IMG/VR virus record: IMGVR_UViG_2786546475_000015 | Span: 64,001-128,000 of that record | Direction: 5' to 3' (one strand) | DNA: 64,000 nucleotides | Source of the DNA: a virus | Lineage: Duplodnaviria > Caudoviricetes | Shown: one piece after another, positions 6,056 to 62,406 of the stretch | How positions within the stretch are numbered: position 1 is the stretch's first letter | Layout of the letters: every line of letters starts with the position of its first letter | The notes under the pieces: model-generated | The model's input: only the letters and a program-made list of their open reading frames with translations | What the model was told of the DNA's origin: nothing | Database searches by the model: none | Program-made: the position numbers and the translations under genes

Positions 6056-8441
6056 TAAACATACCTTTTACTTTATCAATAATTAATCGAATTAAAGAAC
6101 GGTTTTTGAATTCTTCTAATTCTTTCTGTAACACGTCTAGTCGTCTTGATGTTTCAATCGAATGCAATGTACCAAGTTTACCGTAATCTACGGTTAGATA
6201 GCCATTCTCGCTTTCTGACACGACTTCTGGATATATTTTCTGTACGTCTTGGGCGATTACACCAACATCGTACTTACCAGCGTCATCTTTTTCTACATTT
6301 TTATCCCAAATCCATTGTTTTGAATTTAGTTTTCTGTTAGACTTAGGTGTATAATTGCTAATGTTGTGCTTTAATTTTTCGTCAGACGAAATTTTAAAAC
6401 CAGAAGCTTCTACATTAAACCTAAATTCCCATGTATTATTAGTGACATAGTTACGCGCTGTCCAATAATCATTACCTAGATACGTTCTATATAACGCTAT
6501 TTGGTTATCACCCGCGCCTGATAATTGGTTATTACCCGCATATTCTATACCACCACCATGTGATGTTTGACGACCTACGAATAAACGACCTGAATCTGGA
6601 CTACTGTTACCGTAAATACCTAAAAATGAATTCGACGTAGATTTAATACGAACATCTGTATCAGAACCGTTATCTACTGATAAATTAGTATTGAACTCAG
6701 AAGCGTTGCGACCAATAACAGCAAATCTAGTACCACCACGCCATAAATATAGTCCTTCACCAGCGGATGTAGCACTATCGTTATTGTCACGCAACCAAGT
6801 AATACCGTATTGGTTAGAACTAGCAGACCAACCCGGACCAGCCGCGCCACCAGAATAACTATCACCGATAGAGAATATATTACCACCCCATGTAGATCCA
6901 CTACCAGAGTTATATCCATAACCACCAGTGAAGCCATATCTCATAGCTAGTTGAGTGCTATTAAAGTTACGACTAATACGATTATCCGCTAAATATCCAC
7001 TTGATATATTGCTCGCATCTAATTGAGTAAGTTGGCTACCATTACCATTGAATGTACCATTGAACGTACCACCACTGAATGTTGATGATACGACACGATT
7101 AGCGGTTAAATCGCCGTCTAAATCAATACCCGCATTAGAATCTGAACTAGGCGCACCAGTATTGTTACTAAAATACCAAATACCATCACGAACAAATGTA
7201 CGTAAACCACTATTGTTAGTGTTATCGTCATAATCGTTAAGATAAATGTATTTACCAAGATACGAGTTTGTTGTACGTGTTACGCTATTATCTACGGATA
7301 ATGTTCTATTAGCGCTTAAATTACCGCCACCAGATAAACCAGAACCAGCGGTAATCGTTCTTGTTTGTCGAACATATCTACTATCGCTTTCTGCGATAGA
7401 GAAAACTTCTAAATTAGAACGTGCGCCCGCTACACTCGAAGCCCCTGTACCACCGTTCGGAATAGATAAATCAGTACCAGACCAATTACTGTTATTAATC
7501 GTATCTTGTGTCGATAAATCACCAAGATTTAAAGCGTTACGCGCACTTGATGAAGTTGTACCCAACGCTAATTGGTTGCTATCATCCCAAACTTTACGCC
7601 AACCATCCCAAGTACCACCACTTGACATGTTGAAATACATACTCTTAGAACCATTACGAGATATGGCTATTAGGGCATTAGCGTCATCATTATTACTAAA
7701 ACTTAGAACTCTAGATACTTCACTAGCGTAACTATTGGTTGTATTAGTATCGGTAGATCCAAATCCAGCATAACCGATATTAAAATAATCTGATATATAC
7801 GGCGAACCTTGGTTACCAATACCAAATGAACCATTCACTAATAACTCATTATTACCAGTACCTACATCATAAGTAGCCGCATTACCAAGATTTAAATTAG
7901 CGTAAACATCGTTTAAATCGGTAATATCGCTTAAATTATTGTCAGCATTTAAATATCTGTTATCTGATTCAGTTCTTGTGTATAATTGAGACGATGAATA
8001 TGTTTCCGATTTACTATATACATCTAAATTAGTACGCGCTTGAGATTTACTACCCAAGTCATTTAAATTTTGAGACGTATTTAGGTAATTATCGTCTGAT
8101 TCAGTCTTAGAATATACACCGATAGCATTTCTGAAACCGCTATCAGTTGTTTGCGTTAATACAGAACGTGTGAATGTACTTGTACGCGCATTAAAGAAAT
8201 CTGTTGTTCTCAACGCGGTCATATACACATTATCAGTACCCGCTTGAGCTTGAGCTTGTGTAGCTACTGAATAATTCTGTAAATTAGAAAGACCTACATC
8301 GGCTTGTGTAGGTTTATCAAATTCGGTATAAACTTTATGGTCGTTGTAAAACAACGAATCACCATCTGGAAGAAACGGTAAATTACCGCCGCTCCAGATG
8401 GTGTTGCCACCGATTGTTGTATTTAATTTTAAATCACTCAT
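6045..8441 (-). CDS. distal long tail fibre B: gp36-like N-terminus, C-terminal intramolecular chaperone (peptidase S74)
   Basis: MSDLKLNTTIGGNTIW..GNLP..KVYTEFDKP (gp36 N-term); SDEKLK..GVIAQDVQ..P..V..VDY. Confidence 0.85.
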   Translation of the reverse strand: MSDLKLNTTIGGNTIWSGGNLPFLPDGDSLFYNDHKVYTEFDKPTQADVGLSNLQNYSVATQAQAQAGTDNVYMTALRTTDFFNARTSTFTRSVLTQTTDSGFRNAIGVYSKTESDDNYLNTSQNLNDLGSKSQARTNLDVYSKSETYSSSQLYTRTESDNRYLNADNNLSDITDLNDVYANLNLGNAATYDVGTGNNELLVNGSFGIGNQGSPYISDYFNIGYAGFGSTDTNTTNSYASEVSRVLSFSNNDDANALIAISRNGSKSMYFNMSSGGTWDGWRKVWDDSNQLALGTTSSSARNALNLGDLSTQDTINNSNWSGTDLSIPNGGTGASSVAGARSNLEVFSIAESDSRYVRQTRTITAGSGLSGGGNLSANRTLSVDNSVTRTTNSYLGKYIYLNDYDDNTNNSGLRTFVRDGIWYFSNNTGAPSSDSNAGIDLDGDLTANRVVSSTFSGGTFNGTFNGNGSQLTQLDASNISSGYLADNRISRNFNSTQLAMRYGFTGGYGYNSGSGSTWGGNIFSIGDSYSGGAAGPGWSASSNQYGITWLRDNNDSATSAGEGLYLWRGGTRFAVIGRNASEFNTNLSVDNGSDTDVRIKSTSNSFLGIYGNSSPDSGRLFVGRQTSHGGGIEYAGNNQLSGAGDNQIALYRTYLGNDYWTARNYVTNNTWEFRFNVEASGFKISSDEKLKHNISNYTPKSNRKLNSKQWIWDKNVEKDDAGKYDVGVIAQDVQKIYPEVVSESENGYLTVDYGKLGTLHSIETSRRLDVLQKELEEFKNRSLIRLIIDKVKGMFNGN

Positions 8442-26873: not shown

Positions 26874-27374
26874 ATGATTATTGGTTATGAGAAGGGTGAT
26901 TGGGTTCAATTAGCGTTAGAAGCTATCGACAACGAAGCCCCGTTATGGTTTGGTCATGGTTGTAACTGTCGAAAAACGATGGGTGCTGGTGTGGCTGAAC
27001 AAGTAAGAAAACGTATTCCCGCATTATACGAAGCGGATCAAATGACAAATACTAACTGGTTAGGTAATTGGTCATTCTGGATGCCTAGAGGTCGAGATCA
27101 TTCAATGATGTTGTTTAATCTTTATACACAGAAAAATTTGGGTGCAGACGCTCGATTAAAATCTATTTTTGATGTATTTACTAGATTAAACGATTTATAT
27201 TTAACTCTAAAACTTGCTATGAATAAAGGGTTTCCGTATAGTATTCCGACTGAAATTGTAATTCCTATGATCGGTTGCGGTATTGGTGGTTTGAAATGGG
27301 AAGATGTAGCCAAAGTCATTGACGAAGCCACACCAGATTTACCAGTACGTGTTATCGAATGGGAACGGAGTTGA
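26874..27374 (+). CDS. macrodomain protein (ADP-ribose processing, tk.4-like)
   Basis: HGCNC..TMGAGVA, NLYTQ, PMIGCGIGGL.W. Confidence 0.85.
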   Translation: MIIGYEKGDWVQLALEAIDNEAPLWFGHGCNCRKTMGAGVAEQVRKRIPALYEADQMTNTNWLGNWSFWMPRGRDHSMMLFNLYTQKNLGADARLKSIFDVFTRLNDLYLTLKLAMNKGFPYSIPTEIVIPMIGCGIGGLKWEDVAKVIDEATPDLPVRVIEWERS

Positions 27375-27375
27375 T

Positions 27376-27693
27376 ATGGATAAGAAATATGTAGCACGAC
27401 AATTAGCATTAGTAGTGAGAAATATTCAAAAGGGATTTCGCGAGCCTGTTGGTATTAATATAAAAATGGATAGCGAATTCGATATCAATAGTGATATTAT
27501 CGATATGGATGAATATTATATTTGTCTAGAAAATTATGGATATGAATTCAATTTTTTTAAATCGGTGACACATTTTAAAGGTCGGAAAATTACTTGGAGT
27601 TTAAATATATATTTGACCGACATAATCAAAAACATTCCAGATAAACGAGTAAGAGAGTATTTATGTTCTATGAACCAAAAAAATTCACAGTAA
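27376..27693 (+). CDS. hypothetical protein
   Basis: ATG after GGAG. Confidence 0.5.
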   Translation: MDKKYVARQLALVVRNIQKGFREPVGINIKMDSEFDINSDIIDMDEYYICLENYGYEFNFFKSVTHFKGRKITWSLNIYLTDIIKNIPDKRVREYLCSMNQKNSQ

Positions 27694-32426: not shown

Positions 32427-33299
32427 ATGGAAACAAAATTTACTAAAGACGGTCGTAAAGTAGCGGTCGTCGGTCAATTGAATAAAACTGAATATATCGT
32501 TCAAGAGATTTTTGTTACCGATGATGGTGATGAAATTCCACAAGGCGAGCGGTTTACAGCTTCAAGTCTTTTAGACAAACCGTTGTTGTCTTATAAAGCG
32601 AAAGAAGAACAGCGTGTTTTAAAAAGCTTGGAAGAATTAAAGGCTACATACGATAAAAAAGAAAAACAGCTTCGTGATTTGGAACAACGTCGAAAAGGCG
32701 CGGCAGAATGGATGAAACAAATCGATTTGTCGATTAAAAATTTACCTAATTTCGATTACGACTTCTTTTGTGATTTCGTGTGTGGTAATTTTAAATACGC
32801 GATTCATGTGGATTATAAAGGTAATCCGTCTAAATATTCTAGGCGTGGTTTTATTCACGATGACATGGTTGATGTATTCCTTAGATTCGAACGTAATTCA
32901 TGGAGTGGTATAGATCAATTCGACATGGTTCGTTTGTTATCCGTAGTCGGTAAATCGGACGGAAAACTAGATTATCGTATTAATCAATACAGCGATGGTA
33001 GTGGTAGTTGCAATAATGAATACGTTTTCTTCAAAACACGCGAAGAAATGGAATCGTGGGTTCTTGAATATATCGATAAAGTCTATCAAGAAGATGAATT
33101 GGAAGAAAAACACTTCGACTTAATGGACGAAGTAGGTTTAGAAATTCCAGAACATTATGTTCAGAATTGGTATGACAAGCAAATACATCATATCCGTGGT
33201 AGCGAATTAAGTGAAATTGAAAGCGTTAGAGAACGATACAAAAATCGTAAAGAATCTATCGAGGAACGGTTAAAACGTGCCACAAACAAAAGTAGTTAA
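32427..33299 (+). CDS. hypothetical protein with coiled coil
   Basis: GAGG RBS; 290 aa. Confidence 0.7.
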   Translation: METKFTKDGRKVAVVGQLNKTEYIVQEIFVTDDGDEIPQGERFTASSLLDKPLLSYKAKEEQRVLKSLEELKATYDKKEKQLRDLEQRRKGAAEWMKQIDLSIKNLPNFDYDFFCDFVCGNFKYAIHVDYKGNPSKYSRRGFIHDDMVDVFLRFERNSWSGIDQFDMVRLLSVVGKSDGKLDYRINQYSDGSGSCNNEYVFFKTREEMESWVLEYIDKVYQEDELEEKHFDLMDEVGLEIPEHYVQNWYDKQIHHIRGSELSEIESVRERYKNRKESIEERLKRATNKSS

Positions 33300-33546
33300 C
33301 GTTAATCGCGATCAGTATGATGTATATATTGGTCGCGGTTCTATTTGGGGTAACCCATTTCGTATTGGCGTTGACGGTACTAGAAAAGAAGTTATCGATA
33401 AATATCGGATTTACCTTGAAAATAACGAAAAACTGTTGTATCATCTACAAACATTGAGAGGGAAACGTCTTGGTTGTTATTGTAAACCAAAAGATTGTCA
33501 TGGTGATGTGATAGTAAATACACTAAATAACGTTTTAGGTATATAA
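33277..33546 (+). CDS. DUF4326-like protein
   Basis: YIGRGS.WGNPF..G.R..VI, L.GK.LGCYC.P..CHGDV. Confidence 0.8.
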   Translation: MPQTKVVNVNRDQYDVYIGRGSIWGNPFRIGVDGTRKEVIDKYRIYLENNEKLLYHLQTLRGKRLGCYCKPKDCHGDVIVNTLNNVLGI

Positions 33547-33549
33547 ATA
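33542..33549 (+). promoter_or_regulatory. T4-type late promoter
   Basis: TATAAATA 27 nt upstream of 33576. Confidence 0.75.
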
Positions 33550-33575
33550 AAGGTAATAATAAAAATAGGTGTATT

Positions 33576-34264
33576 ATGTTTAAAGAATATTTAATAGAGA
33601 ACAGTTATTTATACGAAAACGCGTTACTAAAGGCAGATAAAAGAGTTAGAAATTTCGAAAAGACTAAGTTAAATATGGATGTAGGTGAAGCGGAAAAAGA
33701 AGTTGAATCTATCATACAAGATTATCAGGATGCAATTAATAAGGCGCTGAAATCATTTGAATCGTTATTAAAGAAATCCACTAAACGATATAATAACGTT
33801 AAAATTTTAACAGATGTTAAGTCAGTTTCATCTATCATCGATAAAGTAATAAGTCGTAAGAAGTCGTTTATAGGAATGTCTGACATTGTTCGCGGAGCGG
33901 TTCTTTTCGATAACCAAGAAGATTTGGATGACTTTACAAAAAGATTCCCGCGTAAATACAGTTCTTATATACAAGGTCATAAATCCAAAAAATGGGTTCT
34001 GATCCAACGTATGGTTATTATGGTTCTGAACACTTTTCATTAGATATAGAAGGGTTTACCATAGAACTACAAGCTATGACGCAAAAACTATGGCATTATA
34101 AATCATACGCTCATGACATATATAATAAAACACGTTCGAAAGGGAAAGTATCTAAAGAAGATATGTACATGTCTAAGAAATTATTTAAATTAGGTAACAA
34201 ACCCAAGTACGTTAAAGAAGATCATGAATTATTAAGCTATCAAGGATGGACAATTCTAGATTAG
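33576..34264 (+). CDS. RelA/SpoT-like small alarmone synthetase with CTS-like N-terminus, split by a -1 frameshift at A6 (33987-33992)
   Basis: ORF1: VKS..SI.DK and D.VRG; ORF2: GYYGS.H, IELQ, H.IY; one extra A joins them into about 229 aa. Confidence 0.7.
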
Positions 34265-34279
34265 CGTATAGGATGCTTT

Positions 34280-34654
34280 ATGAAAATTATTGATAATGGT
34301 TTAAGTTACAGACTTACTTACACAGAAAATGAATGGCTTTTGACTCTAATCAACACCAAAGTAGGTTCTGATTATTTAATTAAAAGGGATTTCTTCTTTT
34401 ATGGTGAAGATGACGACGAGTATGTGAGTGATGTTGATGTAAAAGCTAATGTATTTTCGTTGTCTAGAAAGGTATTAGCCGTAATTAACAAGAAAATGTC
34501 TACACAAAAACCACAATACTTTTTCTTCAAAGCATCTACGGAGCGTAAAAAGGCGATATACAAAAGAATGGCATTAAGATTAGAAAAAATGTTTAACGGT
34601 TTGTATAAGCTAGACATTAACGATTCGTACTTCTACTTTTTTAGGAATATTTAA
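34280..34654 (+). CDS. hypothetical protein
   Basis: AGGA RBS; lies between synthetase and hydrolase. Confidence 0.6.
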   Translation: MKIIDNGLSYRLTYTENEWLLTLINTKVGSDYLIKRDFFFYGEDDDEYVSDVDVKANVFSLSRKVLAVINKKMSTQKPQYFFFKASTERKKAIYKRMALRLEKMFNGLYKLDINDSYFYFFRNI

Positions 34655-34656
34655 TA

Positions 34657-34726
34657 AAAGCCCTTGCATTGCAGGGGCTTTTCTGTATAATAGGGGTTGT
34701 TGAGTTGAGAGATAACCTTTAAGGAG
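34657..34726 (+). promoter_or_regulatory. PeSL-like cassette, copy 3
   Basis: AAAAGCCCTTGCATTGCAGGGGCTTTT; TTGCAT-16-TATAAT; AAGGAG. Confidence 0.8.
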
Positions 34727-34731
34727 TTTTG

Positions 34732-35193
34732 ATGTTTCCGCATTTAGTAGATAAAGCCGTTGAGTTTGCCTTTGATCATCATTTTGGTCAGACTGATAAA
34801 GCTGGTGCGAATTACATTTTTCACCCAAAAGCAGTTGCTAAATTTGTTGAAGAAATGGGTTATGGTGATGAATACGTTACTGTTGCTTGGTTGCATGATG
34901 TAGTTGAAGATTGTGATGTAACCGTTGATGAAATCCGCGAAATCTTTGGTGATTGTATTGCCGATGCTGTTGATGCTGTTACTAAACGCAAGTCAGGAAA
35001 TGAGAAATACGCCGATTACATGGCGCGTGTTAAAGCCAATCCAATTGCTACTGTTGTTAAATTATGTGATTACAAACACAACATGGATTTGAGTCGTTTG
35101 AAAGAAGTTGATGAAGTCGCGATTAGTCGTTATGAAAAATATGCTAAGAACAGTGCGCGTCTTTGGAAACATAAATTGAAAATGGGGTGGTAA
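34732..35193 (+). CDS. HD-domain (p)ppGpp hydrolase-like protein (small alarmone hydrolase/Mesh1-like)
   Basis: H.GQ.DK.G..YI.HP..VA, AWLHDVVED, F.....V.AVT, VKL.D..HN. Confidence 0.85.
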   Translation: MFPHLVDKAVEFAFDHHFGQTDKAGANYIFHPKAVAKFVEEMGYGDEYVTVAWLHDVVEDCDVTVDEIREIFGDCIADAVDAVTKRKSGNEKYADYMARVKANPIATVVKLCDYKHNMDLSRLKEVDEVAISRYEKYAKNSARLWKHKLKMGW

Positions 35194-40639: not shown

Positions 40640-40924
40640 ATGAAAACATTTAATCAATTAATTCAAGAACGTGACATGATGGGATGGTTTTCTATCCCAA
40701 AAATGGTTAGAGATAAATTAGAGTCTTTAGGGTATAGTCAAAAGAGCGTCCAACGTAATGTTAAGTACACTATCGAGGATGATTGGGGTGACATGTATGT
40801 TAAAGTCGAAAATAAAAACTCTATCCCAAGTAAAGAAATCGAACAATACGCGAATACAAATAGTAACGTTATGCTAGATAAAGATTATCCAGTAAATGGT
40901 TTTACATTAATTATTCGAATTTAG
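40640..40924 (+). CDS. putative internal head protein
   Basis: MKTFNQLIQE, compare T4 IPIII MKTYQEFIAE; late promoter. Confidence 0.7.
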   Translation: MKTFNQLIQERDMMGWFSIPKMVRDKLESLGYSQKSVQRNVKYTIEDDWGDMYVKVENKNSIPSKEIEQYANTNSNVMLDKDYPVNGFTLIIRI

Positions 40925-44969: not shown

Positions 44970-45995
44970 ATGAGTTTTAAACAATTTTTATTTGAAAAGA
45001 TGACTACTAGCGATGCTATGAAATTATTAGGTTTATCTAATGGGTTTGATGAAACCGAACTAAAGAAAGCATACCGTAGAGCATCAAATAAAGCACACCC
45101 CGACAAAGGTGGTTCAGTAGACGCACAACAACGCGTTAATGACGCTTACAACGTACTTAAAAACGTTGAAGGTGGTGTAGATCCAATGGCGAAATATAGA
45201 CAACGCGCAGAAGAAAATAAAGAAAAAGCGCGTATCGCTGAAATTTATGTAGAACAGTTATTTAATCAGTATTTTCAACCAAGAGTGTACGCGAATTACT
45301 TTAAAGAAATGAGTGGTAAAGAATATACATTCGAACGTAATATCCGCTCTAGTTCTACATGGGGTTCAGTAGTCCATGTAAGTTATCGATTCACTAGCGA
45401 TGATAATAAAACATTTTTTGATATCGATTTCTACGCTAATATGTATTTTACAAAAGCGTTAGGCGGTGGTGAAGAATCTACTGGTTTAGATTCGTTATCG
45501 GTTAATACATCGGTATTACATGAACGCAAAAAATACAAAATGTCGCGTAGTGATTACAAACGAGAAAATTCTATCGAAGTAATTCAAAATCCAGACAAGA
45601 ATTTTCCTAAAGCTAAACTTAAAAAAGTGTTTTCAGTTAAGAAGCGTAAACCAGTAAAACGCGCTGACTACCTTTTAGCGTTCTCAAAAGAGCTAAACGC
45701 GACTAAGAACAAAGACTATATCAAAATACCGCTTAAAAATGGTTATGTGTTGGTATTTACGCGTATTGTATTCATGCGTCAAGCTCAATATCAAGGTAAC
45801 GGTCTATATACTGAAAAACCATTTAGACGCGAAAAATTGATTATTACATCGTTTATGGAAAGTAAAAATCCAGATTACCTAGATGATCTGATCGACGGTA
45901 TGAAGAAAATCCAAAATACAAGTACACCAGAAACTATCGAAAAAGATCTGGAAGTACTTAAAACTAAACTAGAAAGACGTTATATGGATGATTAA
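44970..45995 (+). CDS. J-domain (DnaJ-type) protein with CTS-like N-terminus
   Basis: MSFKQFLFE then LLGL..ELKKAYR...HPDKGG..VNDAY.VL. Confidence 0.85.
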   Translation: MSFKQFLFEKMTTSDAMKLLGLSNGFDETELKKAYRRASNKAHPDKGGSVDAQQRVNDAYNVLKNVEGGVDPMAKYRQRAEENKEKARIAEIYVEQLFNQYFQPRVYANYFKEMSGKEYTFERNIRSSSTWGSVVHVSYRFTSDDNKTFFDIDFYANMYFTKALGGGEESTGLDSLSVNTSVLHERKKYKMSRSDYKRENSIEVIQNPDKNFPKAKLKKVFSVKKRKPVKRADYLLAFSKELNATKNKDYIKIPLKNGYVLVFTRIVFMRQAQYQGNGLYTEKPFRREKLIITSFMESKNPDYLDDLIDGMKKIQNTSTPETIEKDLEVLKTKLERRYMDD

Positions 45996-49604: not shown

Positions 49605-50084
49605 ATGAAACAGTTTAAACAATTTTTAAATGAGAAAGACGAATCAGCGCAAGACATGAAACAGTTAGCCAATGATATTGAAACACTATTAAAACGTAAA
49701 TTTCCCAATGGTAACGTTTACGCACGATTTAGTAATAATCTAACTGAATCAATCTCGGTTTGGGTTGGTCTAGTCGGTAACACACGCGAATTAACTAGTG
49801 GTATCGCTGGTAATGATCCTTTAGCTACTGGATTTACAGTATTCAGAGATCCGAAAGGATTTATTATCGAAACACGCCGTTCAGCATTAAGCGTAAATCC
49901 CGAAGAAGGTTCTTATATGGCTATGGGTTCGGTAAAAATACCATTCCGCAAAACACGCGGCGACGAAAAGAAAATCTTAAAAGCGTTAGAACGTTGGGCT
50001 GATCGAACTATTGCCGTAGTACGTGACGAAGAAGCAAATATTTATAATCGTGCCAATTATTCGGATAAGTATTTTAAATTTTGA
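49605..50084 (+). CDS. putative internal head protein
   Basis: MKQFKQFLNE. Confidence 0.7.
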   Translation: MKQFKQFLNEKDESAQDMKQLANDIETLLKRKFPNGNVYARFSNNLTESISVWVGLVGNTRELTSGIAGNDPLATGFTVFRDPKGFIIETRRSALSVNPEEGSYMAMGSVKIPFRKTRGDEKKILKALERWADRTIAVVRDEEANIYNRANYSDKYFKF

Positions 50085-50092
50085 GGTAAAAA

Positions 50093-50395
50093 ATGATTAA
50101 GAAGTTCAAAGAATTTTTAAACGAATCGCAATTTTCTGATATTTATTTCGATACGTATACAGACGCGGTTAATTTTGCATTAGACCAAACCGAAAAGAAA
50201 GGATATCAATACGATCCAGAAGAAGTAGCGGATATTATCGGGATACATTCATCAAGACCAAAAGATGGTAAAACTACTCGATGGTCTTTGCCACTATACA
50301 AAAACGGCAAAAGACAACGAAAAGAATTGCATGTACAGGTATATGGTCGCGGTACTACAACAAACAACTTCGAGTTAAATCATTATATTCGATAA
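50093..50395 (+). CDS. putative internal head protein
   Basis: MIKKFKEFLNE. Confidence 0.7.
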   Translation: MIKKFKEFLNESQFSDIYFDTYTDAVNFALDQTEKKGYQYDPEEVADIIGIHSSRPKDGKTTRWSLPLYKNGKRQRKELHVQVYGRGTTTNNFELNHYIR

Positions 50396-50425: not shown

Positions 50426-50701
50426 ATGAAAAATTTTAAGAATTGGCTTGCGGAAGCCGAAACTGATAGTAATCTTATCGATGATGTAATCGATGCTATC
50501 AAAGGGGCTGGTATGAAACCAAAAACCCTAGATAAAGGCGATAATTTTAACGTAGCATTTAAGAAAGGTGATACCGAGTATTACGTAAAACCTAATGATG
50601 AAGGTAAAGAATTATTTTACATAGACGCTGATGTGGATGATTTCAAAACATTTAAAGTAAAGGATATCGCCGCACTTAAATCAAAATTAAAGGATATGTA
50701 A
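50426..50701 (+). CDS. putative internal head protein
   Basis: MKNFKNWLAE; AATAAATA upstream. Confidence 0.7.
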   Translation: MKNFKNWLAEAETDSNLIDDVIDAIKGAGMKPKTLDKGDNFNVAFKKGDTEYYVKPNDEGKELFYIDADVDDFKTFKVKDIAALKSKLKDM

Positions 50702-53186: not shown

Positions 53187-53399
53187 ATGAAAGGTTTTAA
53201 AGATTTTATAAGTGAGAAATCAAATTCGTCTGAATGGGTAGCTTATGATGACGATACCGCTAAGGCTATAAAAATATTCAAATCCGAAAGAGCCGCTAAG
53301 ATGTGGTTGAAAAATGAAGGGTTGGGTAGTATCATGAGGCGACAAGAGTTTGATCGTACTTATTCAAGTATCAAAGATAGGTATGACGGTATTAAATAA
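53187..53399 (+). CDS. putative internal head protein
   Basis: MKGFKDFISE; no clear adjacent late promoter. Confidence 0.55.
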   Translation: MKGFKDFISEKSNSSEWVAYDDDTAKAIKIFKSERAAKMWLKNEGLGSIMRRQEFDRTYSSIKDRYDGIK

Positions 53400-61761: not shown

Positions 61762-62406
61762 TCATTTTTTTAAGGCTTCCATAATAGCCAAGAAACTGTT
61801 ATCATCTTTATTATCAGAAGATTCTTTAATAAATTCTTTATTAGTTTCTTTAACATGACTATTAGATTCTTGAACGGCTCTACCGTATGCTTCTGGCGCG
61901 GATGGTCCCCAAACAACATCAACACCAACAGTCAATTTATAACCTTCTTTAACGTATTTAGTACCGTTTCTTTCTTCTAAAACGCCTAATCCCCTAGATG
62001 AAACTCCGGGAATCCAACCAGCACGTAATAATGCCGCTGTTTTGTCACCCGCACCACCATCGCCCTCGATGACTCTTGCACGACCCATAACGTTATTGCC
62101 TTCCCACCACAATTTTTCAATAATAATTGCGGCATGGCTTGGATCAACATATGGTCTTTTTGGGTGATTAAGTTCACCTAAAGACTGTTTACTTGATACC
62201 TGTTCATTAACGTAAGAATCAACAGCTTCTTCAAGAACATTTTTTGGGTAAATACGCCCATTTCTATTCTTGACTTCGGCTTGCAAAAATATACCCTCGA
62301 TATATAATGCACCTTTACCATTATCTTTAGCTTCAACTAAAGTTTTTGATGGTGCATTAGATTCATTAAGGTGTGGGTTTGACCATGTTTCTACTAATAA
62401 TTCCAT
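61762..62406 (-). CDS. 21: prohead protease
   Basis: LYIEGIFLQAEVKNRNGRIYP, LGELNHP, GVSSRGLG, VDVVWGPSAP. Confidence 0.96.
   Translation of the reverse strand: MELLVETWSNPHLNESNAPSKTLVEAKDNGKGALYIEGIFLQAEVKNRNGRIYPKNVLEEAVDSYVNEQVSSKQSLGELNHPKRPYVDPSHAAIIIEKLWWEGNNVMGRARVIEGDGGAGDKTAALLRAGWIPGVSSRGLGVLEERNGTKYVKEGYKLTVGVDVVWGPSAPEAYGRAVQESNSHVKETNKEFIKESSDNKDDNSFLAIMEALKK

Follow-up and report, generated by a model that had tools for sequence, protein, structure and literature searches.

A predicted alarmone synthetase with a T4-type capsid-targeting leader, its conserved partner and an Aph1-like hydrolase in a T4-superfamily phage

INTRODUCTION

Alarmone-synthetase toxins that are delivered into other cells are known to travel by type VI secretion (Tas1/Apk1), by Sec export and, as a prediction, in MuF fusions; other delivery routes have been reviewed (PMC12691689). 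The closest described system to the locus reported here is the apk2-iapK-aph1 cluster of temperate phages, in which Apk2 consists of a MuF head-protein domain and a (p)ppApp synthetase toxin, IapK blocks the acceptor site of Apk2, and Aph1 hydrolyses the product (PMC10083569, PMC12226406). According to the authors of that work, virion carriage of the toxin is not yet known (PMC10083569, PMC12226406). RelA/SpoT domains have also been described as parts of polyvalent phage proteins and of MuF fusions (PMC5512222), and the capsid-targeting leaders of phage T4 suffice for encapsidation, the internal proteins being injected (PMC3012670, PMC12373910). Here we analyzed three adjacent genes at 33542-35193 of a 64,000-nucleotide (nt) stretch of virus record IMGVR_UViG_2786546475_000015, hereafter the window, which encode a divergent alarmone synthetase-like protein with a T4-type leader, a protein of 124 amino acids (aa) and an HD-domain protein.

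The window covers bases 64001-128000 of the 165,977-bp record, which has direct terminal repeats, is 100% complete and has a G+C content of 34.6%. Because the genome encodes a T4-type prohead protease (Peptidase_S77, gp21; window 61861-62397, minus strand, E 4.8e-72), its gene content places the phage in the T4 superfamily. Contigs identical to it occur in Tara Oceans marine metagenomes. Family statistics were drawn from related loci (L-numbers) and protein representatives (P-numbers).

An earlier reading of the same letters, here the original prediction, proposed that a virion-packaged alarmone synthetase is paired with an early alarmone hydrolase. We found that its observations were confirmed and that its interpretation was supported in part; the synthetase gene of this genome is a frameshift allele, and the enzyme may not be made from it.

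RESULTS

The synthetase gene and its family

The first gene is defined by the following features.

33542-33549, plus strand: late promoter octamer TATAAATA, T4-type, 26 nt 5' of the ATG at 33576.
33576-33599, plus strand: capsid-targeting-type leader MFKEYLIE (codons 1-8), with an L-x-E end that is a predicted gp21-type cleavage site.
33576-34043, plus strand: open reading frame (ORF) A, 155 aa, with the N-terminal part of the synthetase in residues 1-139 and an out-of-frame tail in the remainder.
33987-33992, plus strand: frameshift site, an A6 run that lacks one base of contig L009 in the DNA alignment.
33992-34264, plus strand: ORF B, 90 aa, the C-terminal part of the synthetase; the frame is open from 33983.

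ORF A holds a helical N-domain and the motifs Syn1 (K-x3-S-x3-K-x3-R) and Syn2 (D-I-V-R-G), and ORF B holds Syn3 (GYYGSEH), Syn4 (ELQAMT) and Syn5 (H-x2-Y). The two ORFs overlap in different frames, and by their sequence they are the two halves of one gene. A word-indexed protein search recovered an intact homologue of 228 aa, P0004, with 78% identity, on Logan contig L009. The RelA/SpoT motifs claimed by the original prediction were present and in order. The invariant or nearly invariant family residues K82, S86, K90, R94, D103, G147-Y148, G150, H153, E164, Q166, H180 and Y183, which span Syn1 to Syn5 and include the catalytic Asp (Syn2) and Glu (Syn4), were all retained in the window, as were 32 of 32 invariant or near-invariant family positions across the two halves.

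An exhaustive HMMER search with P0004 returned 245 representative clusters (50% identity) at E <= 0.001 and 180 at E <= 1e-10. Intact copies of the family are carried by cultured phages, namely the Sinorhizobium PhiM12 group (SmphiM12_365) and Desulfovibrio phage 7757. The Pfam family RelA_SpoT (PF04607) was matched by 123 of the 144 aligned representatives at E <= 0.001, the best at 9.8e-12. The family profile matched the synthetase domains of Rel and RelP, with D-L-V-R-G and E-L-Q-V-M-T aligned to the catalytic D-x-x-G-x-R and E-x-Q-I-R-T; a phmmer search of the single P0004 sequence against the PDB sequences gave nothing meaningful.

The fold was examined with an AlphaFold model of the intact relative, which had a predicted local distance difference test (pLDDT) score of 94 and a predicted template modelling score of 0.86, the first ten residues alone being of low confidence. 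The top Foldseek matches were all RelA/SpoT synthetases (CapRel, RelQ and RelP, probability 1.0), with CapRel first and of the widest coverage (TMq 0.65). VIA-align gave Z scores of 15.1 for RelQ (5ded), 14.3 for CapRel and 13.8 for Tas1 (overall range, 13.3-15.1), and the Tas1 superposition had a root mean square deviation of 2.6 Å over 162 residues. The next fold class, the Pol-beta nucleotidyltransferases, scored about 6.5. On the model, the protein has the small-alarmone-synthetase (RelA/SpoT-type) fold, and catalytic activity is predicted.

Apk-type enzymes are marked by Syn2 R-Y-T, Syn3 G-x-N and Syn4 Y-H (PMC12226406). At these places the family has D-L-V-R-G-A, with the R at the same offset, G-Y-Y-G-S-H-H, with G for S, and E-L-Q-V-M-T, which is unlike both Apk2 and the RelA/SpoT homologues. 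The product of the enzyme is probably (p)ppApp.

The frameshift allele

The frameshift that the original prediction had read through is real. At the break the window reads TCC-AAAAAA-TGG, as compared with TCA-AAA-ACA-TTA-GG in L009, and the A6 form was also found in the European Nucleotide Archive (ENA) and Tara assemblies and in run X1, from which this DNA may derive. On the other hand, run X2, a 2025 marine metagenome from a separate study, contained a 1,241-nt contig (depth 9.6) bearing A7, which gives a single 229-aa frame. This contig equals the window over 33560-34196 save for a G>A change at 34138 and the extra A behind 33986. Runs X3 and X4 covered parts of the gene and were uninformative for the A-run.

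Relative to L009, the nonsynonymous divergence (dN) was 0.16 in the first half of the gene and 0.15 in the second; the synonymous divergence (dS) was 1.8 in the first half, and the second half was too saturated to compute. No frameshift-stimulating RNA structure 3' of the A-run was supported by folding (z -1.0), and in L009 the gene has one continuous frame without a slippery run. Since the A7 allele is found in X2, the conserved positions are kept, no stimulatory structure is seen and the relative lacks a slippery run, we read the break as a recent homopolymer frameshift allele rather than a recoding signal. With A6 instead of A7, the full-length enzyme is therefore probably not made, or made only rarely, in this phage, while the recovered sequences indicate that intact alleles circulate.

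A short ENA contig (P0005, 952 nt) encodes a 101-aa product of which 81 residues are identical to the window protein before the two diverge. The divergence begins inside the conserved Syn1 region, and the contig may be recombinant or chimeric.

Late promoter, leader and protease

The late promoter placed at 33542 by the original prediction was present, and L009, the 78%-identical relative, has retained it. Of 20 family genes, 11 have an ATAAATA core at a distance of 28-41 nt on their 5' side, as compared with 13 of 383 other ORFs of the same loci. The distance typical of the family is about 31 nt. The number of TATAAATA octamers in the AT-rich window is not above chance (15 found and 16 expected), and the late-promoter argument rests on position and conservation, not on the octamer count.

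The capsid-targeting sequence of phage T4 is MKTYQEFIAE. The leader pattern of MFKEYLIE is shared, as the original prediction had it, by other late-promoter ORFs of the genome, which start MKTFNQLIQE, MSFKQFLFE, MKQFKQFLNE, MIKKFKEFLNE, MKNFKNWLAE and MKGFKDFISE. The leader pattern ^M.{0,3}[FYW]..[FYLIVMW]..E was found in 40 of the 108 representatives of 190-300 aa (37%), against a background of about 3% of shuffled N-termini and 12 of the 327 ORFs of this genome. Of the 10 other family-carrying records, 9 encoded a gp21-type protease (Peptidase_S77); the tenth is a 21%-complete fragment. Judged by sequence, both the late promoter and the leader characterize the family as a whole. From three independent family-wide correlates we infer that the synthetase would be packaged and injected, a reading that they support without proving.

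RNA structure that would mask the ribosome-binding site in early read-through transcripts, in the style of T4 gene e, was not supported at the synthetase gene (z -1.2). Two representatives, P0028 and P0036, have an N-terminal DUF3008 domain in place of the leader, which could be another targeting or accessory module.

At least seven further ORFs of the leader type were found, in the window at 40640-40924, 44970-45995, 49605-50084, 50093-50395, 50426-50701 and 53187-53399 and in the genome at 27047-27604. Several of them stand behind TATAAATA, and their cargos are unrelated and fall mostly in PHROG families of unknown function. By their N-termini these ORFs look like a large set of candidate injected proteins. 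In another locus, the gene L032:3215-3994, just 5' of the gene for the leader-HD-synthetase fusion P0127, has a leader-like N-terminus (MALLSFRQFLVE), which suggests that the P0127 phage too may have clustered internal-protein genes.

The 124-aa partner

The second gene follows the synthetase on the same strand.

34280-34654, plus strand: 124-aa partner gene, apparently DUF6934-related, a predicted cognate inhibitor or immunity protein.

Using phmmer and a profile of 13 homologues, we found a homologue of the 124-aa protein directly 3' of the synthetase in 20 of 23 loci, including loci L032 and L034, in which the synthetase is fused to an HD domain. The original prediction had made the HD hydrolase the main pair of the synthetase and the intervening gene a possible antitoxin. 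The first of these claims has to be corrected: the most constant partner is the 124-aa protein, and the HD gene is nearby in few loci or fused to the synthetase. The conservation of the 124-aa protein is what would be expected of an antitoxin or immunity protein, which is most likely its role; inhibition of the synthetase is predicted.

The partner has no capsid-targeting leader. Pfam DUF6934 was matched by 3 of its 13 homologues (up to 7.8e-8) and was not matched by the window's own protein; DUF6934 clusters are among its neighbours in the Atlas, and its PHROG family is annotated as of unknown function. The model of the partner was mediocre (pLDDT 68.6), and no significant PDB fold match was obtained with it (Foldseek best E 0.11; VIA-align wide best Z 6.6, within noise). 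GNAT-like and RNase E-domain fold rows were distrusted as weak, and a Pfam Dit_C match (E 5e-4) was dismissed because it was below the cut-off.

The layout of the genes was also analyzed. In L019, L021, L023 and L024 the synthetase is a lone gene with the late-promoter core and the leader on one strand, and the partner lies within a long gene block on the opposite strand, convergent with the synthetase. With timing taken from gene orientation by analogy with T4, this layout fits a late-made packaged enzyme and an antidote that would be transcribed with the pre-late genes. In the window, 15 nt separate the synthetase from the partner, which is encoded on the same strand and would therefore be readable from both early read-through and late transcripts.

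The HD-domain protein and its cassette

The third gene stands behind a cassette, and its domain is also found fused to the synthetase.

34656-34691, plus strand: terminator-promoter cassette, with a hairpin at 34656-34682, TTGCAT at 34664-34669 in the left arm and TATAAT at 34686-34691.
34732-35193, plus strand: HD-domain protein, 153 aa, an Aph1-like candidate (p)ppApp hydrolase, with AAGGAG 5 nt before the ATG.
HD then synthetase fusions: P0025, P0065, P0075, P0076, P0124, P0127, P0133.
Synthetase then HD fusions: P0023, P0126, P0134.

The HD protein matched Pfam HD_4 above the cut-off (E 1.2e-12, 48 bits) and is of the alarmone-hydrolase type, as the original prediction had supposed. Its best solved relative is Aph1 (7SMG; E 1e-23 over residues 6-148); the best Rel/SpoT hydrolase domain scored 3e-15, and others were weaker. 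The (p)ppApp specificity of Aph1 has been ascribed to D24, D116 and R119, with K25, A26 and N114 (PMC10083569). Residues D23/K24/A25 and N118/D120/R123 of the HD protein align with D24/K25/A26 and N114/D116/R119 of Aph1. The alarmone had been left broad in the original prediction; the specifically Aph1-like character of the HD protein points to (p)ppApp rather than ppGpp. This protein also has no capsid-targeting leader.

The hairpin of the cassette had a folding energy of -17.7 kcal/mol (z -2.85), and the spacer between TTGCAT and TATAAT is 16 nt. About 40 nt in all (window 34656-34697), the cassette is built of a GC-rich hairpin (AAAGCCCTTGCRT..GCAGGGGCTTTT), a -35-like TTGCRT in the left arm, a -10-like hexamer and an AAGGAG leader, and it recurs at no fewer than eight sites of the genome: at least at 7220, 27600, 87022, 87510, 107923, 108309, 108908 and 112550. 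A sigma-70/terminator consensus scan gave it no score; the cassette is supported by folding and by the alignment of the genomic copies. The hairpin, the two hexamers and the recurrence bear out this part of the original prediction, and the early-promoter role is one that we infer.

In addition to the loci with an HD gene within 4 kb, L033 has one directly upstream of the synthetase. An HD_4 match anywhere in the record was seen in 7 of the 10 other family-carrying records, a count that has no synthetase-less control phages beside it. In about ten representatives HD is fused to the synthetase, independently and in either order, and the N-terminal fused HD domains have the Aph (adenine) signature. 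Two of the fusions, P0126 and P0127, also begin with a capsid-targeting leader. We speculate that their phages would package both activities together, with the joint net reaction ATP -> AMP + pyrophosphate.

The surrounding sequence

A DUF4326 protein gene (window 33277-33546, E 1.5e-26) lies directly 5' of the synthetase gene, and its 3' end overlaps the synthetase late promoter; it did not co-occur with the synthetase in the other loci. Nucleotide searches of the GenBank phages gave only short matches, to the terminator cassette and to the DUF4326 gene.

DISCUSSION

A module of synthetase, inhibitor and hydrolase

Computation establishes what the locus encodes: a protein with a synthetase fold, a conserved partner of it and a hydrolase of the Aph-like kind. 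We propose that the three genes form one module, consisting of a late, packaged (p)ppApp-type synthetase, its cognate inhibitor and an Aph1-like hydrolase, and give this reading a probability of about 0.6. The first gene would be expressed late as an enzyme of about 229 aa with the small-alarmone-synthetase fold and a leader of the T4 internal-protein type. The enzyme would be loaded into the prohead core, cut by the gp21-type protease after L-x-E and delivered together with the phage DNA. Once in the next host, it would use ATP as pyrophosphate donor, with adenine nucleotides as the most likely acceptors and (p)ppApp as the product. The second gene product, which is leaderless, is not expected in the virion, and its most likely role is to bind the enzyme in the cell and block it. 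The third gene, behind its sigma-70-like cassette, would supply the hydrolase that destroys (p)ppApp. For marine and soil T4-superfamily phages at large, the statement that they inject a capsid-loaded alarmone synthetase, which would strike the adenine-nucleotide pool or translation of the host within seconds and which a non-packaged DUF6934-related inhibitor, with or without an Aph-type hydrolase, would switch off, is tentative, and we put it slightly below even odds.

Several observations weigh against the proposal. The synthetase copy is frameshifted in every assembly seen of this genome. The RelA_SpoT profile, which takes in most of the family, fell below the cut-off for the two window halves (E 0.059 for the N-terminal half) and for the intact P0004 (E 0.006, 17.3 bits, under the 27-bit cut-off), and by the fold scores of the model, enzymes that make (p)ppApp, enzymes that make (p)ppGpp and enzymes that modify tRNA cannot be told apart. 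The strict leader pattern is missing in about 60% of the family. Co-occurrence, which is strong for the 124-aa protein, is poor for the hydrolase: the HD gene lies within 4 kb of the synthetase in just 3 of 20 loci, and two complete family-carrying genomes have no HD_4 match at all. The C-terminal fused HD domains and the HD gene of L030 bear the R/K signature of the ppGpp type. Finally, a fast ATP-consuming enzyme injected before early expression would be expected to harm the phage too.

The frameshift can be explained in other ways. It may be that the gene of this phage is a decaying pseudogene, with the module dead and the other two genes persisting for other reasons. The one-base deletion shared by the window, the ENA and Tara assemblies and run X1, and a 155-aa product without Syn3 to Syn5, are what decay would leave, yet every conserved residue is intact past the break and a near-identical A7 allele exists, so that the lesion must be very recent or reversible. 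We consider decay unlikely, although it deserves to be kept in mind; it would be limited to this genome and is compatible with the proposed module in the family. Far less probable, indeed hardly credible to us, is that the A-run keeps the dose of a dangerous enzyme low, through programmed -1 ribosomal frameshifting or transcriptional slippage. The A6 run coincides with the change of frame, re-pairing of the A-site lysine codon in the -1 frame is possible, and the downstream frame is fully conserved. However, a canonical X XXY YYZ heptamer is lacking, the folding of the downstream sequence is unremarkable, the intact relative does without such a run in a single frame, and the A7 allele shows the ordinary state to be in frame.

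Where the enzyme acts, and on what, could also differ from the proposal. The module could have another chemistry, acting on tRNA, with the 124-aa protein as antitoxin and the HD protein removing the modification or doing something else. That CapRel tops the Foldseek matches with the widest coverage agrees with this view, and a small adjacent antitoxin is typical of the toxic small alarmone synthetase (toxSAS) systems. However, RelQ, RelP, Tas1 and CapRel have practically equal Z scores, the hydrolases found linked or fused to the synthetase belong to the Aph1 (p)ppApp type and retain the residues for adenine specificity, and both the Syn2 R three residues past the catalytic D and the Syn3 G for S are Apk2-like (PMC12226406); tRNA chemistry seems to us quite unlikely. 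On a similar footing, and if anything a shade less probable, is an enzyme that is not packaged, its leader being a recombination relic among hypervariable late genes and the module serving in toxin-antitoxin action, superinfection exclusion or control of the nucleotide pool within the infected cell alone. The many members without the strict pattern would suit this explanation, as would the other N-terminal domains of some members, such as DUF3008. It has to contend with a leader that is about 10 times as frequent as in shuffled N-termini and other ORFs, that co-occurs with a fixed-spacing late promoter and with gp21-type proteases, and that is absent from the partner and the HD protein; in T4, moreover, such a leader is sufficient for encapsidation (PMC3012670).

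If the packaged-synthetase proposal is correct, the T4 internal-protein route would add virulent phages to the list of delivery systems for (p)ppApp-type toxins. Among internal-protein cargos, the synthetase would be the first enzyme of this kind, and the known roles of T4-type internal proteins, restriction inhibition and ADP-ribosylation, would be widened to include nucleotide-alarmone warfare. The 124-aa partner is a candidate for a new family of immunity proteins against such enzymes. Since intact copies are present in cultured phages, the idea is directly testable.

Comparison with known systems

The original prediction knew of no described packaged version of such an enzyme. In our literature searches the T4 internal-protein route, the divergent synthetase family and the DUF6934-related partner were not found described; equivalents of the module associated with the phage head are known, in the MuF-Apk2/IapK/Aph1 cluster and the polyvalent proteins with RelA/SpoT domains.

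The MuF-Apk2/IapK/Aph1 cluster has a comparable order of three genes: a head-associated RelA/SpoT-fold pyrophosphokinase, a small protein-type immunity gene and an Aph-type HD hydrolase. The hydrolase of the window is a clear relative of Aph1 with the same specificity residues. However, the synthetase here has an 8-10-aa T4-type leader and a late promoter in place of the MuF fusion, and none of the 144 synthetase family members matched the MuF families of Pfam. It also belongs to a separate, divergent family with E-L-Q-V-M-T at Syn4. For the 124-aa partner, which is apparently related to DUF6934, no solved structure resembling it was detected, and the Apk2 cluster is carried by prophages whereas the phages here are lytic members of the T4 superfamily.

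The internal proteins of T4, IPI, IPII, IPIII and Alt, share with the synthetase a short leader ending in L/I-x-E, late expression and a gene that lies amid early genes (PMC3012670, PMC12373910), together with a gp21-type protease in the genome and a hypervariable set of cargos. The known ones differ in function, being GmrSD inhibitors or, in the case of Alt, an ADP-ribosyltransferase; among T4 internal proteins neither an alarmone-synthetase cargo nor a cargo with its own immunity gene and product hydrolase has been described.

The toxSAS enzymes (FaRel, FaRel2, PhRel2 and CapRel) and the type VI secretion pair Tas1/Apk1-Tis1 have the small-alarmone-synthetase fold in common with the synthetase (Z 13-15) and likewise come with a neutralising protein as neighbour or with a small alarmone hydrolase; Tas1, in addition, reaches the target cell ready-made. 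Their sequence identity with the synthetase is only 13-17%, and they serve bacterial defence or competition, whereas here the owner is a phage and the virion is the proposed vehicle. The RelA/SpoT domains of polyvalent proteins, like the synthetase, are predicted to accompany the DNA into the host, where they would set off an alarmone-like response (PMC5512222). They are parts of giant multidomain proteins, whereas the protein encoded here would be a small stand-alone enzyme with a cleavable leader.

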